Shown: positions 5,792 through 51,194 of the stretch, piece after piece
Numbering within the stretch: the first letter of the stretch is position 1
How the letters are laid out: each line of letters begins with the position of its first letter
Assembly (NCBI GenBank): GCA_016200135.1
Contig: JACQFI010000030.1
Location: 8,656-72,655 of the forward strand
Source of the DNA: Planctomycetota bacterium
GTDB taxonomy: Bacteria; Planctomycetota; SZUA-567; H5-PLA8
Reading direction: 5' to 3'
Length of the DNA: 64,000 nucleotides
The notes under the pieces: generated by a model
What the model was told of the DNA's origin: nothing
Databases searched by the model: none
The model's input: only the letters and a program-made list of their open reading frames with translations
Position numbers and translations under genes: made by a program

Positions 5792-6514
5792 ATGCCACGC
5801 ATACGATATGCGGGACACCCCGCGCGCCATCTGCGCTCGCTGCCGGTTCATCACCATGATGTGTGGATCGTGATTGTGTACACCTATGGGAAAGGCGCAG
5901 TGCTCTTCGCGGACGAAACCATTTCCTTCCAGCGCGGCACGGTCCTGTGCGTCCCGCCGCGCATGCCTTATGCCGAAAAGTCCTCGTGGGGCTTCAAGTC
6001 GGCCTTCATCGCCGCCGAAGATCTGGCCATGGACACGAGCCGCCCGCACCTTTTTAAAGACGAAGAGGGAATTCTTCTACGCCTAGCGCCGCTGGTCGTG
6101 GACGCCTACAACTGCGGTAGTAAGCGCACGTCGATAATCGCCGAACAGCTTTTTGGTACGCTGCTGCTTGGGCTCACGCCGGTCGAAGGAATGAAACGCC
6201 ATCCGATGGTCGAGCGCCTTCGCGAGCTCGTGCATCGACACTGGTCCGATCCGGACTTTCACGTTGGAAAAGGCTTTAATGCGCTGCCGGTCTCTCAGGC
6301 GCACCTGCGCCGAGCCTTCGTGCAGGAATGCAAGATGCCGCCGGTCGGGTACTTGCTCCGCTATCGCCTGAACCAGGCACTGCGCTTGCTTTCGATCGGC
6401 GGATTCTCGATCAAGGAGGTGAGCCAGATGTGCGGCTTCGCCGATCCGTACTATTTTTCCCGAGCCTTCCGCAAGATCGTGGGGAAGCCGCCGAGCACGT
6501 TAAACCGCAAATGA
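5792..6514 (+). CDS. AraC family transcriptional regulator (cupin-like N-terminus plus HTH)
   Basis: The C-terminus (HLRRAFVQECKMPPVGYLLRYRLNQALRLL...IKEVSQMCGFADPYYFSRAFRKIVGKPPS) is the classical AraC double HTH. Divergent from the PhyH gene. Confidence 0.88.
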   Translation: MPRIRYAGHPARHLRSLPVHHHDVWIVIVYTYGKGAVLFADETISFQRGTVLCVPPRMPYAEKSSWGFKSAFIAAEDLAMDTSRPHLFKDEEGILLRLAPLVVDAYNCGSKRTSIIAEQLFGTLLLGLTPVEGMKRHPMVERLRELVHRHWSDPDFHVGKGFNALPVSQAHLRRAFVQECKMPPVGYLLRYRLNQALRLLSIGGFSIKEVSQMCGFADPYYFSRAFRKIVGKPPSTLNRK

Positions 6515-6593
6515 GACGCGGATTTTTCGAAAGGAACCGAGCGAAGCTGTGAAAAGCCAGCGGTTACGGTTTTTTCCATTCGACTTGGGGGGC

Positions 6594-7211
6594 ATGTCCG
6601 TGAGTCTGTTACGTTCGCTGTTTGGTCCCAGCAAAGAGGAAATCTGGCGCGCGCTCGCGAACGAAATCGACGCCGAATACGTCAACGGCGGTTTTTGGAA
6701 GGGCGACAAGGTTCAAGCGCATTACGGCGACTGGACGGTCACGCTAGACACGTACACCGTATCCAGCGGCAAGAGCAGCACGACATACACGCGCATCCGC
6801 GCGCCCTACGTAAACCGCGACGGATTGCGGTTCGAGGTCTACCGCGCTGGGCTCTTTAGCGGAATGGGCCGCGCGCTGGGCATGCAGGATGTCGAGATCG
6901 GCGAAGGGGCCTTCGACGAAGCCTTTGTGGTGAAAGGAAACCAGGAAGCACAGGTCCGGCGGCTTTTTGGTAATCCGCTCATCCGAGAATTGCTCGCAGC
7001 CCAGCCTGCCGTGCACCTGGAAGTATGCGACGACGAAGGCTGGTTTGGGCCATCCTTTCCCAAAGGCGTGGACGAATTGCGCTTTCATACGGTGGGCACG
7101 ATCCGCGATGTCGAGCAGCTCAAGCAACTCTTCATGCTTTTTGCCGAAATCCTGAACACGCTCTGCCACATCGGCTCGGCATACGAAGACGATCCCGGTT
7201 TGGACTTGTAG
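6594..7211 (+). CDS. hypothetical protein
   Basis: ORF 6549..7211. ATG 6594 (MSVSLLRSLFG) preferred. Balanced, coding-like composition. No family recognised. Confidence 0.55.
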   Translation: MSVSLLRSLFGPSKEEIWRALANEIDAEYVNGGFWKGDKVQAHYGDWTVTLDTYTVSSGKSSTTYTRIRAPYVNRDGLRFEVYRAGLFSGMGRALGMQDVEIGEGAFDEAFVVKGNQEAQVRRLFGNPLIRELLAAQPAVHLEVCDDEGWFGPSFPKGVDELRFHTVGTIRDVEQLKQLFMLFAEILNTLCHIGSAYEDDPGLDL

Positions 7212-42439: not shown

Positions 42440-42565
42440 GCACGCCTCCGGAACAGACGACCTCAAATCGCTTCGGCACACTCGAATCTAAGCCCGCCCT
42501 GAGCGTGCATCCAGAAGTTTTCGAGCCACGTCTAAAATCTTGCGCGAGTGGGTTATACTGTCGTG

Positions 42566-42934
42566 ATGGAGACAGGCAAGCCGCGCCGCTGGTTCCAGCT
42601 TCACCTATCCACGTGCGTGGCAATGATGCTTATCGCGGCTGGACTGTTGTGGCTAAACGTAAGGCCAATCACAAACCCAATGTGGGAAGGCGCTGAACTG
42701 GATTTTCTTACCGGATATGGTTGGCCTTTGATTCATTATTATGTGCCAAATGGTAATTTGACGCTGGTAGATTTAGCGTTTGCAGGAATTGAACATGATC
42801 CGTCAAGCAGAGTGCTATGGTTTCGAGCATTGGTTAATGGAATAGTCTTTCTACTCTCAGTAATAGCAGTGGCAGGTATTTTCGAATTACTGCTGGGCCG
42901 CTTTTGCAACCCAATTGTCAATCGTCAATTGTAA
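42566..42934 (+). CDS. small hypothetical membrane protein (low-GC gene)
   Basis: ATG 42566 (METGKPRRWFQLHLSTCVAMMLIAAGLLWL). A second TM helix lies near the C-terminus (IVFLLSVIAVAGIFELLL). Clearly AT-richer than the neighbouring genes. Confidence 0.55.
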   Translation: METGKPRRWFQLHLSTCVAMMLIAAGLLWLNVRPITNPMWEGAELDFLTGYGWPLIHYYVPNGNLTLVDLAFAGIEHDPSSRVLWFRALVNGIVFLLSVIAVAGIFELLLGRFCNPIVNRQL

Positions 42935-43057
42935 ATCGTCAATTCACTCGCCTGGGATTCCTTCCTTCCCCGGCCGCTTCGCAGGCTCGATGATCCCTTC
43001 CAACGGGCTGCTGGCGGTCGCGTAGAGTTTCTTCGCGATGCGCCCGCTGCGCGCGGC
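42913..43057. repeat. left 145-bp direct repeat (displaced copy of the thiG 3' end)
   Basis: Ungapped alignment with 44656-44800 at a constant offset of 1743 bp. 132/145 positions identical by manual count. Confidence 0.9.
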
Positions 43058-43234
43058 CTGCACTCCTTCCGCGGGCACGTGCGGATATTCCTTGAGGAAC
43101 CCGTTCAGCGTCCCGCCTTCGGCAAACCATTCCAGCACGTGCGCCACCGAGAGCCGCGTCCCGCCGCCCAGCGTACCCGAGTCGCCGACGATCCACGCTT
43201 TCCCGTTGTCGAGCTTCGCTTTCCTGTTTTTCAT
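42944..43234 (-). CDS. DUF433-like protein whose C-terminal 34 residues derive from a duplicated thiG tail (chimeric ORF)
   Basis: N-terminal DUF433 signature (GGGTRLSVAHVLEWFAEGGTLNGFLKEYPHVPAEGVQAA). The C-terminus ([34 protein letters not shown]) matches the ThiG C-terminus ([34 protein letters not shown]). Confidence 0.6.
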   Translation of the reverse strand: MKNRKAKLDNGKAWIVGDSGTLGGGTRLSVAHVLEWFAEGGTLNGFLKEYPHVPAEGVQAARSGRIAKKLYATASSPLEGIIEPAKRPGKEGIPGE

Positions 43235-43295: not shown

Positions 43296-44645
43296 TTAGG
43301 TTAGCCAATCCCCAGACTCAATCTTGGGCTTCAAGTATTGCTCCATGAAAGCAATATATCCGGATTTCATTGACGCATTGTCGCTTACAAATTGTCTGCG
43401 ATAACTATCGGCCATTCCTTCCAATTCAAGTTTTCCGCGTTGCGCTTCAAAGGCCTGGAGTTCTTTCTTCCAATCCTTCTTGGCGAAACATGGGTAGTGC
43501 GACATGGCGCGAAGGCGAAGCGCCCAGTGCTTCTCCCAACCTATTCGGTAATGCGCGGCATTCCCTGTTAGTTCCAGGTCTCCCGTGCGAAGCCCAAGGA
43601 AGCGAATGTCTTTCAACGCTAGTTCGCGACACTTCGCGTATGGGGCGGTCAGACCTCGCTTGAGCACCGAAAAAATAAAATAGCCCCAGGTATCGTTATC
43701 CGTGAGCAAATACACGGGCAACCTGAACTGGTCTTGGAGGTGTCTCAAAAATCTCCGCGTATGAGCGCGTGGGATTCCGCACGATCCTATGATCAACATA
43801 TCAAGGATCTTGGCGGCCCCACATGCCGCAAAAATGTTGGCTGGTGTGTTCTTTTCAACCAACAAGATACCTTGTGCCTTGCATCGAACGACCTCGAACG
43901 CATCGCCATGATCAGGAATATTCAAACCTTTTGAAATATGGTCTGCCTCTTTCTTCATGCCGTCTTGGAATCGCAGGGTCAAGGCGCCCCAAACCTTTGA
44001 ATGTGCAGCAGTCTTGGGGAGATATGGATACTCATTCTCAAAAAGGTCCTGAAAAATGCCGATTTCGTCCTCGTGAAAGGTGGAATCCTTTTCATCCGTA
44101 ATCGCGCGAAGCGAAGCCAAGGTTGGATTGTAACGCTTCCAACTATAGTAATAGCTCTGACTGAAAAGCGTCCGTGTTGGAACGGCAGTCTTTCGTGGAG
44201 TCGGCCAGCGCTTGATCCACTCGCATACGATGGGATTGAAGCCAGGCAGGAATGCAGGCGGGCGAATGCGATCATGGGGCCAATACCGCCGAATAGGCTT
44301 CCCCTTCTTGAATTCATAGACCGTCGGATCATAGGGCCACACGACCCAAACAATTTTCACACCGGCTTCGACAAGGTCTATCGCTTCATGCATTGAATTT
44401 TGATAACTATTTGTAGTGATTACGGCAAGGTCGGGACATACGCCGTGGTTTTTTCTGGACTCAATCAACCAGGATTTTGAAAGCCGGCTCTTGCGAATAA
44501 AACCTAGATCAAGTTGCTTGCAAGTGTATGGCGGCTTCTTAGGCCAAGTCCACCATCTATTTCGAAAGACGAGGCCGAGATCGTTCTTCTTGACGAACTC
44601 CGCCAGGCGAATGCGCCTCTTCATGCGAATACCCGCCGATCCCAT
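43296..44645 (-). CDS. fusion of degenerate Uma2/DUF820-like nuclease domain with Topo VI-A/Spo11-type (5Y-CAP plus Toprim) module
   Basis: Uma2-like LDLGFI...CPDLAVITT...AGVKIVWVVWPYDPTVYEF. Tyr cluster SQSYYYSW (Y165-167). Toprim Glu in GILLVEKNT (E264). IIGSCGIPRAHTRRFL. DxD in VYLLTDNDTWGY (D316/D318). IRFLGLRTGDL. KKELQAFEAQRGKLELEG. Low-GC gene. Confidence 0.65.
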   Translation of the reverse strand: MGSAGIRMKRRIRLAEFVKKNDLGLVFRNRWWTWPKKPPYTCKQLDLGFIRKSRLSKSWLIESRKNHGVCPDLAVITTNSYQNSMHEAIDLVEAGVKIVWVVWPYDPTVYEFKKGKPIRRYWPHDRIRPPAFLPGFNPIVCEWIKRWPTPRKTAVPTRTLFSQSYYYSWKRYNPTLASLRAITDEKDSTFHEDEIGIFQDLFENEYPYLPKTAAHSKVWGALTLRFQDGMKKEADHISKGLNIPDHGDAFEVVRCKAQGILLVEKNTPANIFAACGAAKILDMLIIGSCGIPRAHTRRFLRHLQDQFRLPVYLLTDNDTWGYFIFSVLKRGLTAPYAKCRELALKDIRFLGLRTGDLELTGNAAHYRIGWEKHWALRLRAMSHYPCFAKKDWKKELQAFEAQRGKLELEGMADSYRRQFVSDNASMKSGYIAFMEQYLKPKIESGDWLT

Positions 44646-44655
44646 TCTGACGGCA

Positions 44656-44800
44656 AATCGTCAATCGTAAATTGTAAATCGTCAATTCACTCGCCCGGAA
44701 TTCCTTCCTTCCCCGGCCGCTGCGCGGGCTCGATGATGCCTTCCCACGGGCTGCTGGCGGTTGCGTAGAGTTTCTTCGGGATGCGGCCGCTGCGTGCAGC
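44656..44800. repeat. right 145-bp direct repeat (functional 3' end of thiG plus ~30 bp downstream)
   Basis: See the left repeat. Both copies begin with a doubled AATCGTCAAT(T/C) 11-mer. Confidence 0.9.
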
Positions 44801-45508
44801 GAGATAGCCCGCTTCGCAGGCCAGGCCCATCGCGCGCGCCATCGCCACGGGGTCTTTCGCCAGCGCCGCGCCGCTGTTCAGGAGCACGCCCTCGGCGCCG
44901 AGTTCCATCGCGATGGCCACGTCGCTGGCGGTGCCGACGCCCGCGTCCACGATCACCGGGGCCTTCACCGTCTCGAGGATGATGCGGATGTTGTTGGGAT
45001 TCAGGACGCCTTGGCCCGAACCGATGGGGCTGCCCGCGGGCATCACGCTCGCCGCGCCCGCGTCTTCAATGCGCCGGGCCATGGCCGGATCGTCGCTGGT
45101 GTAGCAGAGCACCGTGAAGCCGTCCTTCACCAGCGTCTTGCAGGCCTCCAGCGTGCCCAGCGGCTCCGGCAGCAGCGTCTTTTTATCGGCGAGGACCTCC
45201 AGCTTGACCCAGTCCACCTCGAGCGCCTCGCGGGCAAGCCGCGCCGAACGCACCGCGTCTTCCGCCGTAAAGCAGCCCGCCGTGTTGGGCAGGATGATGT
45301 ACTTCTTCGGGTCGATGTAATCGAGCAGCGCCTCCGCGTGTTTCTGGCCCATCTCCACGCGCCGCACCGCGACCGTGACGACCTGGCAGCCGCTCGCATC
45401 GAGCGCCTCGCGCATGATCTCCAGCGAGGGGTACTTCCCCGTGCCGAGAATCAGCCGCGACCGCAGCGTGTATTTGCCCAACTTGAACGGTTCGTACGCA
45501 ACGGACAT
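44687..45508 (-). CDS. thiG: thiazole synthase
   Basis: 273 aa ([47 protein letters not shown]). GAGGAG lies upstream of the ATG. Confidence 0.93.
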
Positions 45509-49082: not shown

Positions 49083-51194
49083 TTACGAACGGCCGACTTT
49101 GCGTTCGAGCTCGTCCCAGGTGAGTTCCACCGCGAGCGGGCGGCCGTGGGGGCAGGTGTAGCCGCGCATGCCGACGCGGGCGTGGTACTCGTGCAGGAGC
49201 GCCGCCATCTGCTCGTGGCTCAGGCGTTCGCCGGCCTTGATGGCGCCCTTGCAGGAACAGACGTACGCGGCCTTCTCGCGCAACTGTTCCCGGCCCGGGA
49301 TTTTTTTGCCGGCCAGCCTTTCTTCGGAAACGCCCGCGAGCGCCTCGAGGACCTCGCGGACGAACGTGGCGGCCTGGGCCGATTTCAGGCAGGCGGGCAC
49401 CGCCGCGACGGCCACGGCGCGGGGGCCGAAGGGTTCGGCGGCAAACCCGAGTTCCTCCAGGACCGCGCGGGCTTCGTCTGACGCGAAGGCCGCGGCTTGC
49501 GCGGGCGTCAGTTCCAGCGTTTCGGGGATGAGCAGGCCCTGGCGGTCGGCGCGGCCGGAACGGGCCCGCGCGAGGAGTTCCTCGAAGAGGATGCGTTCGT
49601 GAAGCGCGTGCTGGTCGAAGATACGCAGGCCGGTCTCGTCTTCGGCGAGGATATACATCGCGGCGGCTTGGCCGATGATGCGGAACGGCGGCGCGGGACG
49701 GCGCTCCGCAGGGGACGGGGGAAGGGGGGCGTGGGACGCGGAGGCGCGCTCGGCCAGGGACGCTCGGCCAGGGACGCGGGGCGCGGAGACTGGGGCGGAG
49801 GCGCTGTGCGCTGCCGAGCCAAAGGTTGCCGGCGCTTCGGCGGCCTGGGATGCCTTCTCGTCCGGCTCTGCGTTCCGCGTTCCGCGTTCCGCGTCCCGCG
49901 CCTTTCCGTGGCTGTCGCGCCAGCGTTCGAACGCGGCTGAAGCGTGCGGCGCGAACGGAAGAATGGGCTCGGGGCGCGCGCGGTCTTCCGTCATGAGCTC
50001 CGCGCCCCCCGCCCCGCGTCCTCCGTCCCGCTCCTCTGGAACCGGCGCGGCGAAGGCCTCGCGGACGGCGTGATGGAAGAGCGAGAAGATCAGGCCCGGG
50101 ATGCGGAAGCGGACCTCGGCCTTGGTCGGGTGGACGTTGACGTCCACGTCGAGGCCGGGGCATTCGAGGTACAGGACGGCGGCGGGGTAGCGTTTGGGCG
50201 GCAGGAGGTGGCGGAAGGCTTCGAGCAGCGCCGTGGTGAGCGTGCGGTCTTTGACGGCGCGGCCGTTCACCGCGAGGTAGATGTGCGACCGGTCGGAACG
50301 CGATCGGGCCGGGGGCGTGACAAGCCCATAGAGCCGGTAGCCGCGGACGGGGCCGGTTTCATCCGCAGAGGAAGGTCCTTCGGCGCGCAGGGGCACGAGG
50401 TCCCGGGCGGCGTCACGGCCGAGGGCTTCCGCGGCGCGCCTAAGATAGGCTTCGAAAGGGAACTCGGCGGGAGCGGTTTCCACCCCAGATCCGCCGGGCG
50501 CGGGCCAGGCGGCGCAGGCGAGCAACTCCTGGCGGCCTTGAGTCAGGGTAAACGCGACCTCGGGGCGGAGCAGCGCGAGGCGCAGGAGCGTATCGGCGCA
50601 GGCGGCGGCCTCGGCGCCGGCCCCTTTCAGAAACTTCTTGCGCGCGGGCAGATTGTAGAAGAGATCGCGGACCTCCACGGTGGTCCCGCAGGCGCCCGCA
50701 GCGGGCGCGAGCGCGGCACTCGCGCCGCCTTCCACCACGATGCGCCAGGCGCCCTCGTCGGAAGGCTCGGTCGCGCCAGCGCTCGAGCCTGCCTGCAGGC
50801 GGGCGCGCGTGGTGAGTGTCATGCGGGAGACGGAGCCGATCGAGGGGAGCGCCTCGCCACGGAAGCCGAGGGTCGCGAGGGTATAGAGGTCGTCGGCGGA
50901 GCGCAGTTTGGACGTCGCGTGGCGGAGCACCGAGCGTTCCAGATCCGCGCGGGACATGCCGCAGCCGTCGTCGGAGACGCGGACGAGGTCCCGGCCGCCG
51001 CCTTCGATGGACACGTGGACGGCGTTGGCGCCCGCGTCGAGGGCGTTCTCGACGAGTTCCTTCAGGACGCTGGCGGGCCGTTCGATGACCTCGCCGGCCG
51101 CGATGCGCGACTTGACGTCGTCCGGGAGCACCCGAATGCACGGCCCGGAAGCCAGGGCGGACGGGCGCGCCGAGGTGGCGCGGGAGGCGTTCAC
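49083..51194 (-). CDS. mutL: DNA mismatch repair protein MutL
   Basis: GHKL N-terminus (IAAGEVIERPASVLKELVENALDAGA, DDGCGM, LGFRGEALPSI). Long Ala/Pro/Arg-rich linker. C-terminal dimerisation/endonuclease region (QHALHERILFE, CKGAIKAG, CPHGRP). Confidence 0.92.
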   Translation of the reverse strand: MNASRATSARPSALASGPCIRVLPDDVKSRIAAGEVIERPASVLKELVENALDAGANAVHVSIEGGGRDLVRVSDDGCGMSRADLERSVLRHATSKLRSADDLYTLATLGFRGEALPSIGSVSRMTLTTRARLQAGSSAGATEPSDEGAWRIVVEGGASAALAPAAGACGTTVEVRDLFYNLPARKKFLKGAGAEAAACADTLLRLALLRPEVAFTLTQGRQELLACAAWPAPGGSGVETAPAEFPFEAYLRRAAEALGRDAARDLVPLRAEGPSSADETGPVRGYRLYGLVTPPARSRSDRSHIYLAVNGRAVKDRTLTTALLEAFRHLLPPKRYPAAVLYLECPGLDVDVNVHPTKAEVRFRIPGLIFSLFHHAVREAFAAPVPEERDGGRGAGGAELMTEDRARPEPILPFAPHASAAFERWRDSHGKARDAERGTRNAEPDEKASQAAEAPATFGSAAHSASAPVSAPRVPGRASLAERASASHAPLPPSPAERRPAPPFRIIGQAAAMYILAEDETGLRIFDQHALHERILFEELLARARSGRADRQGLLIPETLELTPAQAAAFASDEARAVLEELGFAAEPFGPRAVAVAAVPACLKSAQAATFVREVLEALAGVSEERLAGKKIPGREQLREKAAYVCSCKGAIKAGERLSHEQMAALLHEYHARVGMRGYTCPHGRPLAVELTWDELERKVGRS

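Follow-up and report, generated by a model that had tools for sequence, protein, structure and literature searches.

What does a relative of the A subunit of topoisomerase VI (Topo VI-A or Top6A) do in a bacterium where it stands alone, joined to a nuclease-like domain and wedged behind a conserved gene? This question is raised by a 64,000-nucleotide (nt) stretch of a Planctomycetota genome (assembly GCA_016200135.1, contig JACQFI010000030.1, positions 8,656 to 72,655; hereafter the window), in which an open reading frame (ORF) beside thiG (43296..44645, minus strand, as are all its parts given below) encodes the remnant of a Uma2 domain followed by a Topo VI-A-like core apparently devoid of the catalytic tyrosine. 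The listed ORF is uninterrupted and encodes 449 amino acids (aa). Translation possibly starts instead at M8 (44624), yielding 442 aa, which is the length of the public gene call for the same protein (98% coverage), and the closest homolog, P0002, of the same architecture and 49% identical, starts at the equivalent 'M(T/K)KRIRL', matching the M8 start. The initial annotation recognised the fusion and proposed for it the role either of an orphan effector that cleaves DNA or of the enzyme that moves the element, ideas which the polymorphism of the thiG site described below makes more concrete. The explanation tentatively placed first here, at a little short of an even chance, is that the gene codes for a Top6A-derived, tyrosine-less, metal-hydrolytic endonuclease with a dead Uma2 domain, carried in a selfish, homing-type, site-specific cassette.

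Relatives were sought among 5.8 billion proteins, of which 22 are close ones, and by a profile search of 1.84 billion cluster representatives, in which approximately 80-90 clusters were retrieved at E<1e-50 before canonical Top6A proteins (~360-375 aa) appeared; the column counts given here are from an alignment of 69 family members. The only Pfam domain in the fusion protein is TOP6A-Spo11_Toprim (PF21180, E=1e-25), which spans residues 260-421 (43383..43868), while the TP6A_N, JetD and Uma2 profiles, for which searches had also been recommended, gave no match at E<=1. Among the sequences of the PDB, phmmer pairs the fusion protein with S. shibatae Top6A (2zbk_A) at E=2e-22, the profile of the 69-member family matches the same chain at E=6.8e-50, and the hhalign comparison with an alignment of 19 Top6A/Spo11 sequences reaches a probability of 100% (E=2e-52), the aligned part extending from query residue 193 through to the C-terminus. 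The AlphaFold model of the core, built with 57 sequences, has a mean predicted local distance difference test (pLDDT) score of 92.7 and a predicted template modelling score (pTM) of 0.92. Its sole PDB matches in Foldseek at E<=1e-3 are Top6A chains (2zbk_A at 1.5e-15 with a template modelling (TM) score of 0.68, 9o0g, 1d3y and 2q2e) and yeast Spo11 (8urq and 8uru), with no chain labelled JetD or MksG among them.

The Toprim motifs listed in the initial annotation are all present and reflect real homology far above chance, and the metal ligands named there are intact. E264 (codon 43854..43856; E or D in 56/69 members) and the two aspartates of the D316-N-D318 (DxD) motif (43692..43700; D in 62/69 and 59/69 members, respectively) align gap-free to E202, D254 and D256 of M. 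mazei Top6A. A further acidic residue in the 'KLELEG' box, E407 (43425..43427; E or D in 52/69 members), falls on M. mazei E342, the 'clasp' glutamate of Top6A, in the family profile, with K405-L-E407 facing K-A-E342. In M. mazei Top6A, E202, D254, D256 and E342 make up the acidic tetrad of the active site in a 2026 cryo-electron microscopy study (PMC13040014), in which residues 227-229 form the minor-groove-binding loop. G290 of the fusion protein lies in the loop aligned to these latter residues, and G290, P292, R297 and R298 (the TRR motif) are invariant or near-invariant in the family, as is a C-terminal Y-x-C-F...W-x-x-E block. By alignment and modelled fold, residues ~193-449 are a clear homolog of the Topo VI-A Toprim with all four acidic active-site residues.

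Further upstream the likeness does not extend. The initial annotation had followed the type IIB A-subunit order and spacing through residues ~155-449, with Y165-167 as the candidate catalytic tyrosine; the correspondence holds from residue ~190 on and fails upstream of it, where neither TP6A_N nor an arginine partner is found, and the three tyrosines exist without being conserved, these columns holding Tyr in 16, 13 and 1 of the 69 members and F, L, I, W, S or others in the remainder. The hhalign and hmmsearch alignments to Top6A begin at query residue ~185-193, and all confident ones begin past the catalytic tyrosine, at chain residues 129-132 in S. shibatae and 127 in M. mazei, where this tyrosine is Y106 (PMC13040014). 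TP6A_N (PF04406) is absent from the fusion protein at E<=1, whereas canonical Top6A proteins in the same search carry it. Residues 151-192 (44070..44195), which include Y165-167, Y172 and T175, form three short helices ahead of the alignable part in the core model (pLDDT 71-93) and are probably the remnant second half of a winged-helix (5Y-CAP) domain; the column counts reveal no conserved Arg/Tyr dyad among them in the 69 members. Within them, 'TLFSQ' (residues 159-163; 44157..44171) is placed by alignment and column counts at the family hallmark TLFDP, whose columns contain T/S in 68/69, L in 66/69 and F in 61/69 members and which, in the short forms, signals where the core begins. TLFDP was considered and rejected as a remnant of the RDxYY motif, being collinear with S. 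shibatae only and situated ~33 residues from E194, a distance longer than in any Top6A examined, and as a beta-clamp-binding motif, since it does not fit QL[SD]LF and is packed against the protein body in the model.

The sole semi-conserved tyrosine of the family is that of a 'P-Y' pair, found in 49/69 members and usually 19 residues before the invariant E194, a spacing resembling the 20-21 residues of short Spo11-like sequences; in archaeal Top6A it is 28. Greedy hhalign settings (mact 0.05 and 0) set P-Y on the YY of Top6A with a confidence of 0-1 upstream of residue 193, which is a hint only, and no Arg is conserved four residues upstream of the P-Y column. This tyrosine may be the vestigial catalytic tyrosine of Top6A, and part of the family could still be tyrosine-dependent. 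The fusion protein and its sub-clade are without it: the column is occupied by T175 in the fusion protein, Cys in P0002 and Thr/Asn in P0003 and P0011, the short members most similar to the fusion protein. Presence of the P-Y tyrosine is not coupled to an intact metal triad, with 38 members having and 12 lacking it where the triad is intact (the 12 of 50 including the fusion protein, P0003 and P0011), and 11 having and eight lacking it where the triad is degenerate. The catalytic tyrosine thus appears to be missing from the fusion protein, which makes covalent catalysis of the Spo11 type unlikely.

The protein's N-terminal portion, residues ~14-136 (44238..44606), corresponds to a Uma2 (PD-(D/E)xK) domain, in keeping with the fusion originally proposed. 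In BLASTP searches, residues 14-136 match the thiG-adjacent Uma2 proteins of two related loci, L001 and L023, at E=1e-11 and 1e-13, over Uma2 residues ~61-184. The full-length model's N-terminal portion is of low confidence and still retrieves Uma2/DUF820 structures in Foldseek (1wdj, 3ot2 and 9y1l at probability 0.98, 0.96 and 0.77; E=0.03-0.07). Sister fusions point the same way: the Pfam Uma2 profile is matched below threshold in five of the eight long forms scanned (6.6e-6, 2e-4, 1.4e-3, 5.4e-3 and 0.16), and P0044 scores 26.2 bits against a cut-off of 27. The degeneracy noted in the initial annotation is likewise borne out. The fused domains are without the first ~55 residues, PDLAV-I in the fusion protein takes the place of PxLVV-E, with the catalytic Glu replaced by Ile, the conserved Lys is absent, and the Asp, Glu and Lys of PD-(D/E)xK are unconserved across the fused Uma2 domains. 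On this sequence evidence, residues ~14-136 are a genuine Uma2 domain, truncated and catalytically dead.

Its likely origin is visible in L001 (GCA_027493525.1, Planctomycetota), which is syntenic with the window and has the gene order thiS-thiG-Uma2-Toprim-X574-purD-Sua5-kinase. Here the Uma2 protein (193 aa, Pfam 2e-38) and the Toprim protein (297 aa) are encoded by separate genes, the start of the latter overlapping the stop of the former by 4 nt, and since these separate overlapping genes occupy the same locus, the fused domain probably arose by fusion with an upstream Uma2 gene. The overlapping pair and the fusion together link the Uma2 and Toprim families in the Rosetta-stone sense; full-text literature searches found no paper mentioning both. 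The full-length Uma2 genes beside thiG (L001:9423-10004 and L023:3161-3748) also match the PADLOC family PDC-S03 (E=1e-20 to 1e-21), a candidate, unvalidated single-gene defence family.

Most members of the Toprim family comprise 270-300 aa, equivalent to query residues ~150-449, and start ~10 residues before (R/K/Q)-T-L-F-D-P. Among the ~90 best representatives there are seven further long ones (418-444 aa) with an N-terminal extension of ~130-150 residues. All taxonomically labelled members are from Planctomycetota metagenome-assembled genomes. Loci were retrieved with a 23-sequence alignment, as the 69-sequence alignment is too variable; the 185,579 GTDB species representatives yielded only two, and a JGI metagenome scan 12. 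IMG/VR, the INPHARED phages and BFVD contained no match to the family, the plasmid collection yielded nothing but Top6A of haloarchaea from megaplasmids, and full-text literature searches turned up no account of a family of this kind. The family is a small, undescribed one of Planctomycetota single-gene cassettes. Weak JetD-profile matches occur in P0044 (9e-5) and P0031 (0.03; 0.031), and P0006 has an OLD-like_TOPRIM trace (E=0.14). In one member, P0048 (L021:776-2095), the TLFD motif is immediately preceded by a fused Topo VI-B transducer domain (PF09239, 6e-13). Its 4.2-kb contig carries no GHKL ATPase, and P0048 was rejected as a split Topo VIII, the upstream gene coding for a PKD/TSP3 protein and not for a GHKL protein; it may hint at descent from a B-A fused (Topo VIII-like) or B-associated ancestor.

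The position of the gene is as distinctive as its product. It follows an intact thiG (44687..45508, minus strand; Pfam ThiG 6e-107), 86-88% identical to the ThiG of L001, L005 and L007, the 3' end of which is the insertion site. The low-GC, repeat-bracketed setting described at the outset was recovered: the ORF has a G+C content of 49.7% as against 63% across the window, and is flanked by a direct repeat of 175 nt with 85% identity between its copies. Copy A (44626..44800) is made up of the final 38 codons of the intact thiG and 61 nt of downstream spacer reaching to the beginning of the fusion ORF, while copy B (42883..43057) consists of a displaced thiG 3' end and spacer and supplies the C-terminus of a chimeric ORF. 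In this ORF (42944..43234, minus strand), DUF433 residues ~1-58 are in frame with the displaced last 38 thiG codons, as seen by Pfam (DUF433, 1e-8, on chimera residues 25-61), tblastn (to ThiG 173-273) and DNA alignment. The displaced thiG copy is slightly decayed (W to L, Q to K and P to A). An addiction module formed with the DUF433 protein, as had been suggested, is hence rejected, as the supposed partner is a truncated gene fused to a displaced thiG end and recurs at no other locus. At L026, the contig of P0002, the thiG 3' end is followed by 60 nt, P0002, ~45 nt and a thiG-3'-like 25-mer at the contig end, and this locus apparently shares the duplicated-thiG-end architecture of the window; no thiG 3' duplication was found in L001, L005, L007 or L022-L025. 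Directly after the thiG stop, both repeat copies contain two to three copies of ATTGACGATT in the spacer (44650-44686 and 42910-42943), which could represent an operator, promoter or recombination site. A promoter and terminator scan of the island remained at chance level. Other short tandem motifs (GGAATG-like) are found at the same post-thiG position in L001 and L005.

Across relatives whose ThiG is 86-90% identical to that of the window, the thiG site occurs in different states. It has no insert in L022 and L025, where thiG is directly convergent with the next annotated gene, and neither Toprim nor Uma2 in L024, where a short unannotated ORF comes next. A single Uma2 gene is found in the 36-nt thiG/FecR spacer of L023, the flanks of which match L022; L005 and L007 contain the Toprim gene alone, L001 both Uma2 and Toprim, and the window and L026 the fused Uma2'-Toprim gene. 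Comparison of L022:2791-2828 with L023:3109-3752 shows the clean presence or absence of the 195-aa Uma2 gene in the convergent thiG/FecR-like spacer, with no obvious target duplication and no recombinase at either locus. In L005 and L007, ThiG is 99.3% identical with a synonymous divergence (dS) of 0.24, and the downstream gene has a dS of 0.31. The Toprim alleles at the same position (5980-6882 in both) are 66% identical, with saturated dS (~2) and a ratio of non-synonymous to synonymous divergence (dN/dS) of 0.14, their divergence peaking at residues 60-120, which separate the TLFDP motif from the Toprim fold. Since the dS of the Toprim genes is saturated while that of the flanking genes is 0.24-0.31, the Toprim alleles considerably predate their flanks, which points to horizontal replacement, and purifying selection acts on them.

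Beyond thiG, the family gene has a lower GC content than its flanks in 12/12 loci, by 2-17 points, and is typically wedged co-directionally and with hardly any spacer behind an unrelated host gene, including thiG and those for an FHA-GAF regulator, an SRAP protein, a 2-hydroxyacid dehydrogenase and an RHS protein. No neighbour gene is conserved across the family loci, and no Topo VI-B, JetABC, recombinase or phage context was found in the neighbourhood of the fusion gene or at ~25 related loci, which bears out, and extends to the homologs whose survey had been proposed, what had been reported for the window. In two metagenomic or MAG loci, genes of the polymorphic-toxin type adjoin the Toprim gene: at L014 (106-1734) it directly follows a gene for an RHS-repeat protein, and at L008 (5083-5517) it lies beside a WapI-like immunity protein gene (28.9 bits against a cut-off of 27) and a leucine-rich repeat ORF. 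The gene is a single-gene, low-GC, horizontally exchanged cassette, found repeatedly in the spacer after the thiG stop in related Planctomycetota.

Under the selfish-cassette explanation, the protein would have kept the Toprim with its full acidic metal site, the DNA-contacting loop and, probably, the final portion of the winged helix, and would have lost the N-terminal winged-helix half (the B-binding part), the Arg/Tyr catalytic dyad and any B subunit. It would bind duplex DNA as a Top6A-like dimer and cut it by metal-activated hydrolysis, in the manner of JetD/MksG, and with no 5'-phosphotyrosyl intermediate it would be an endonuclease, neither a topoisomerase nor a Spo11. The Uma2 domain would most likely serve in DNA binding or target choice, or provide an oligomerisation surface. 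A cut near the thiG 3' end would promote the homology-driven insertion or retention of the cassette itself. The full metal triad is present in 50/69 members and partly lost in 19/69, and such partial loss would be expected of the decay cycle of a selfish nuclease.

Several observations weigh against this explanation. None of the strictly invariant family residues (P292, G331, F387, W392 and E395) is a metal ligand, and in P0002 the E/D/D triad is replaced by H/E/T in an intact ORF, so that catalysis may not be the selected function. The predicted hydrolytic cleavage comes by analogy with JetD/MksG alone, families that the protein does not match, and alignment and spacing are the sole source for where Y165-167, Y172 and T175 would lie with respect to Y106. 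To our knowledge, Toprim is no known fold class of homing endonucleases. Most family loci are away from thiG, and neither a target-site duplication nor a recognition sequence at the empty sites was identified. The thiG-site pattern could also derive from an ancestral gene and subsequent losses; the saturated dS argues against simple vertical descent.

Comparison with known systems delimits what the protein could be. Its homology to Topo VI-A/Spo11 (2ZBK, 1D3Y, 2Q2E, 9O0G and 8URQ) extends from residue ~190 to the C-terminus, with a shared Toprim fold (TM 0.66-0.68), acidic tetrad (E, DxD and the Glu of the KxE box), 'G-x-P...TRR' DNA-binding loop and 'Y-P-C/W-F...W-Q-x-E' C-terminal motifs, and its KxExxAL-type box is nearer to that of Topo VI than to those of Mini-A or Topo VIII. 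Unlike those enzymes, the fusion protein is without the N-terminal winged-helix half (no PF04406), the R-x-x-Y-Y dyad and a nearby B subunit, carries Uma2, and is encoded in a bacterial, low-GC, exchanged cassette rather than being an essential chromosomal enzyme. No gene for a B subunit (GHKL ATPase plus transducer) was found next to the fusion gene or at L001-L026, P0048 having the fused transducer only. Lacking the Tyr/Arg dyad, the full winged helix and a B subunit, the fusion protein would fall outside Topo VI-A/Spo11. Mini-A (Takahashi et al. 2020) shares with the family a core of ~300 aa, the absence of a B subunit and the E and DxDxxG motifs (DNDTWG in the fusion protein). All Mini-A members contain the catalytic tyrosine and an upstream Arg, have an xWELDAL box and are encoded by phages or prophages (PMC7671362). 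In contrast, the present family has no conserved Tyr or Arg, its corresponding box is GKLELEGM in the query and K-(V/L)-(E/D)-L-x-A-L, without Trp, in the family consensus, and its neighbour genes are cellular, with no match in IMG/VR, INPHARED or BFVD. By the published criteria (PMC7671362), the family is distinct from Mini-A. A phage or Mini-A origin was rejected on these three negative collections and on a Top6A query against the phage collection, which also returned nothing.

JetD/MksG is a Top6A-related Toprim protein without the catalytic tyrosine that cleaves DNA hydrolytically as a dimer, and it provides a functional precedent for the chemistry proposed for the fusion protein. The latter differs from it in matching no JetD profile (DUF3322/DUF2220/DUF2399; Pfam and PADLOC, E<=1) and in having no JetABC or MksBEF genes in the window neighbourhood or at related loci, and in sequence the family lies far nearer to genuine Top6A than either JetD or Mini-A does. 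By analogy, the fusion protein would come nearest in its working to a JetD-type Toprim nuclease, with a scaffold that still closely resembles real Top6A. It is unlike the OLD and Gabija GajA-type Toprim nucleases in lacking an N-terminal ABC-type ATPase. With Uma2/DUF820 proteins (PF05685; 1WDJ and 3OT2), residues 14-136 share the PD..., PDLAV and GV.VWVV strands, and full Uma2 genes occupy the same thiG site in relatives; the differences are the N-terminal truncation by ~55 residues, the exchange of Glu for Ile, the loss of Lys and the junction with Toprim. In its behaviour the cassette resembles free-standing homing endonuclease genes (such as seg and mob of phage T4), which are likewise lone small nuclease genes in the spacer by a highly conserved gene, patchy among close relatives, foreign in base composition, with alleles older than their flanks and with a decayed active site in a sizeable share of copies. 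It differs from them in residing on a bacterial chromosome, not in a phage, and in the 175-nt duplication of the thiG end, which is foreign to classical homing.

Ranked second, close behind the selfish cassette, is a stand-alone anti-phage or anti-plasmid defence nuclease with the same hydrolytic Toprim chemistry, for which the thiG spacer would serve as a small hot spot of defence genes, with Uma2 as an effector that cooperates or offers an alternative. This role is possible but doubtful. The PDC-S03 matches of the Uma2 proteins at the thiG site, the low-GC, patchy and horizontally replaced character of the cassette, the two loci with RHS-repeat or WapI-like immunity genes and the description of some Top6A-related Toprim proteins (JetD/MksG) as defence nucleases are all consistent with it. 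PDC-S03 is, however, an unvalidated candidate, and the JetD-profile matches of the relatives are weak. In the fusion protein itself, PADLOC found no match, NCBIfam only far-sub-threshold Top6A equivalog matches and PHROGs a chance-level match (E=0.36), by which a known defence protein was ruled out. No sensor, ATPase, methylase or other conserved partner occurs at the ~25 loci, the flanks are ordinary housekeeping genes rather than defence islands, and an unregulated nuclease without self/non-self discrimination would be toxic.

A non-catalytic DNA-binding protein (a regulator or a nucleoid or partition factor) or a decaying remnant, its Top6A scaffold retained so as to bind or bend DNA and cleavage not being the selected function, is unlikely, while constituting a serious rival to the nuclease explanation. 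It would account for invariant residues that are structural or DNA-binding, for the 19/69 members without the full triad, among which are both the nearest homolog P0002 and the transducer fusion P0048, and for the lack of canonical catalytic residues in both modules (the Glu and Lys of Uma2 and the Arg and Tyr of Top6A). The retention of the four acidic residues here and of the triad in 50/69 members, far above expectation without selection, speaks against it, as do the dN/dS of 0.14 between the L005 and L007 alleles and the unbroken ORF despite a GC content 13 points under that of the genome. A Spo11/Mini-A-like transesterase, making double-strand breaks via a 5'-phosphotyrosyl link through Y165-167 or Y172 and possibly acting as the recombinase of the element, is highly improbable: a scaffold very near true Top6A in sequence and fold, a Tyr cluster 27-29 residues before E194 (within the Top6A Tyr-to-Glu range of 20-29), the widespread P-Y tyrosine with its low-confidence placement on the Top6A YY and the direct repeats flanking a gene with no other recombinase present would suit it, but the tyrosines of the cluster are rarely conserved, the P-Y column lacks Tyr in this sub-clade, has no Arg four residues upstream and is unlinked to an intact metal site, TP6A_N is unmatched, confident alignments begin past the tyrosine, and 175-nt repeats at 85% identity are unlike the leavings of a 2-nt staggered Top6A-type break.

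Both Spo11 and the Wadjet/Mks nucleases descend from type IIB topoisomerase A subunits, and how the Top6A scaffold shifts from a reversible tyrosine transesterase to a plain nuclease is an evolutionary question to which this family speaks. Its members no longer have a B subunit, the Arg/Tyr dyad or half of the winged helix, and approximately 70% of them keep a tyrosine, possibly the old catalytic one; the family thus forms a natural series for what the Toprim site does alone. The recurrent fusion or adjacency with Uma2 is the first functional link found for this large and uncharacterised nuclease family, and the polymorphism of the thiG site (empty, Uma2, Toprim, both or fused) offers a small system for the study of integrase-free cassette exchange in a phylum with few genetic tools. 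What makes the locus of interest is mainly its connection with Uma2, the graded disappearance of the transesterase apparatus and the exchange of cassettes at the thiG site without an integrase. A bolder extension of the selfish-cassette explanation, speculative and rather improbable, is that Tyr-less Top6A-derived Toprim cassettes, with or without Uma2, represent a new class of self-propagating site-specific endonuclease cassettes in Planctomycetota. These would cut the 3' end of a conserved gene (thiG) and enter by integrase-free homologous repair or Campbell-type recombination, their own copy of the gene end giving rise to the duplicated thiG 3' end in the window and L026, and Uma2, an enigmatic and highly abundant family, would thereby gain its first mechanistic role.

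Between the distal thiG repeat and purD, the island further contains an ORF of 128 aa with predicted membrane segments (42548..42934, plus strand; 46.5% GC), which has no Pfam match. As this ORF lies outside the repeats, the low-GC island is larger than the repeat-flanked cassette and is probably composite; the ORF recurs at no other locus and was rejected as a partner. X574 of L001 was likewise rejected as a third component, having no domain or defence match, and looks like a secreted helical-repeat protein. The only GHKL-type ATPase noticed near the fusion gene, which is no Topo VI-B candidate, is a 703-aa ORF (49083-51194, minus strand) that reads as the housekeeping mismatch-repair protein MutL by its translation.

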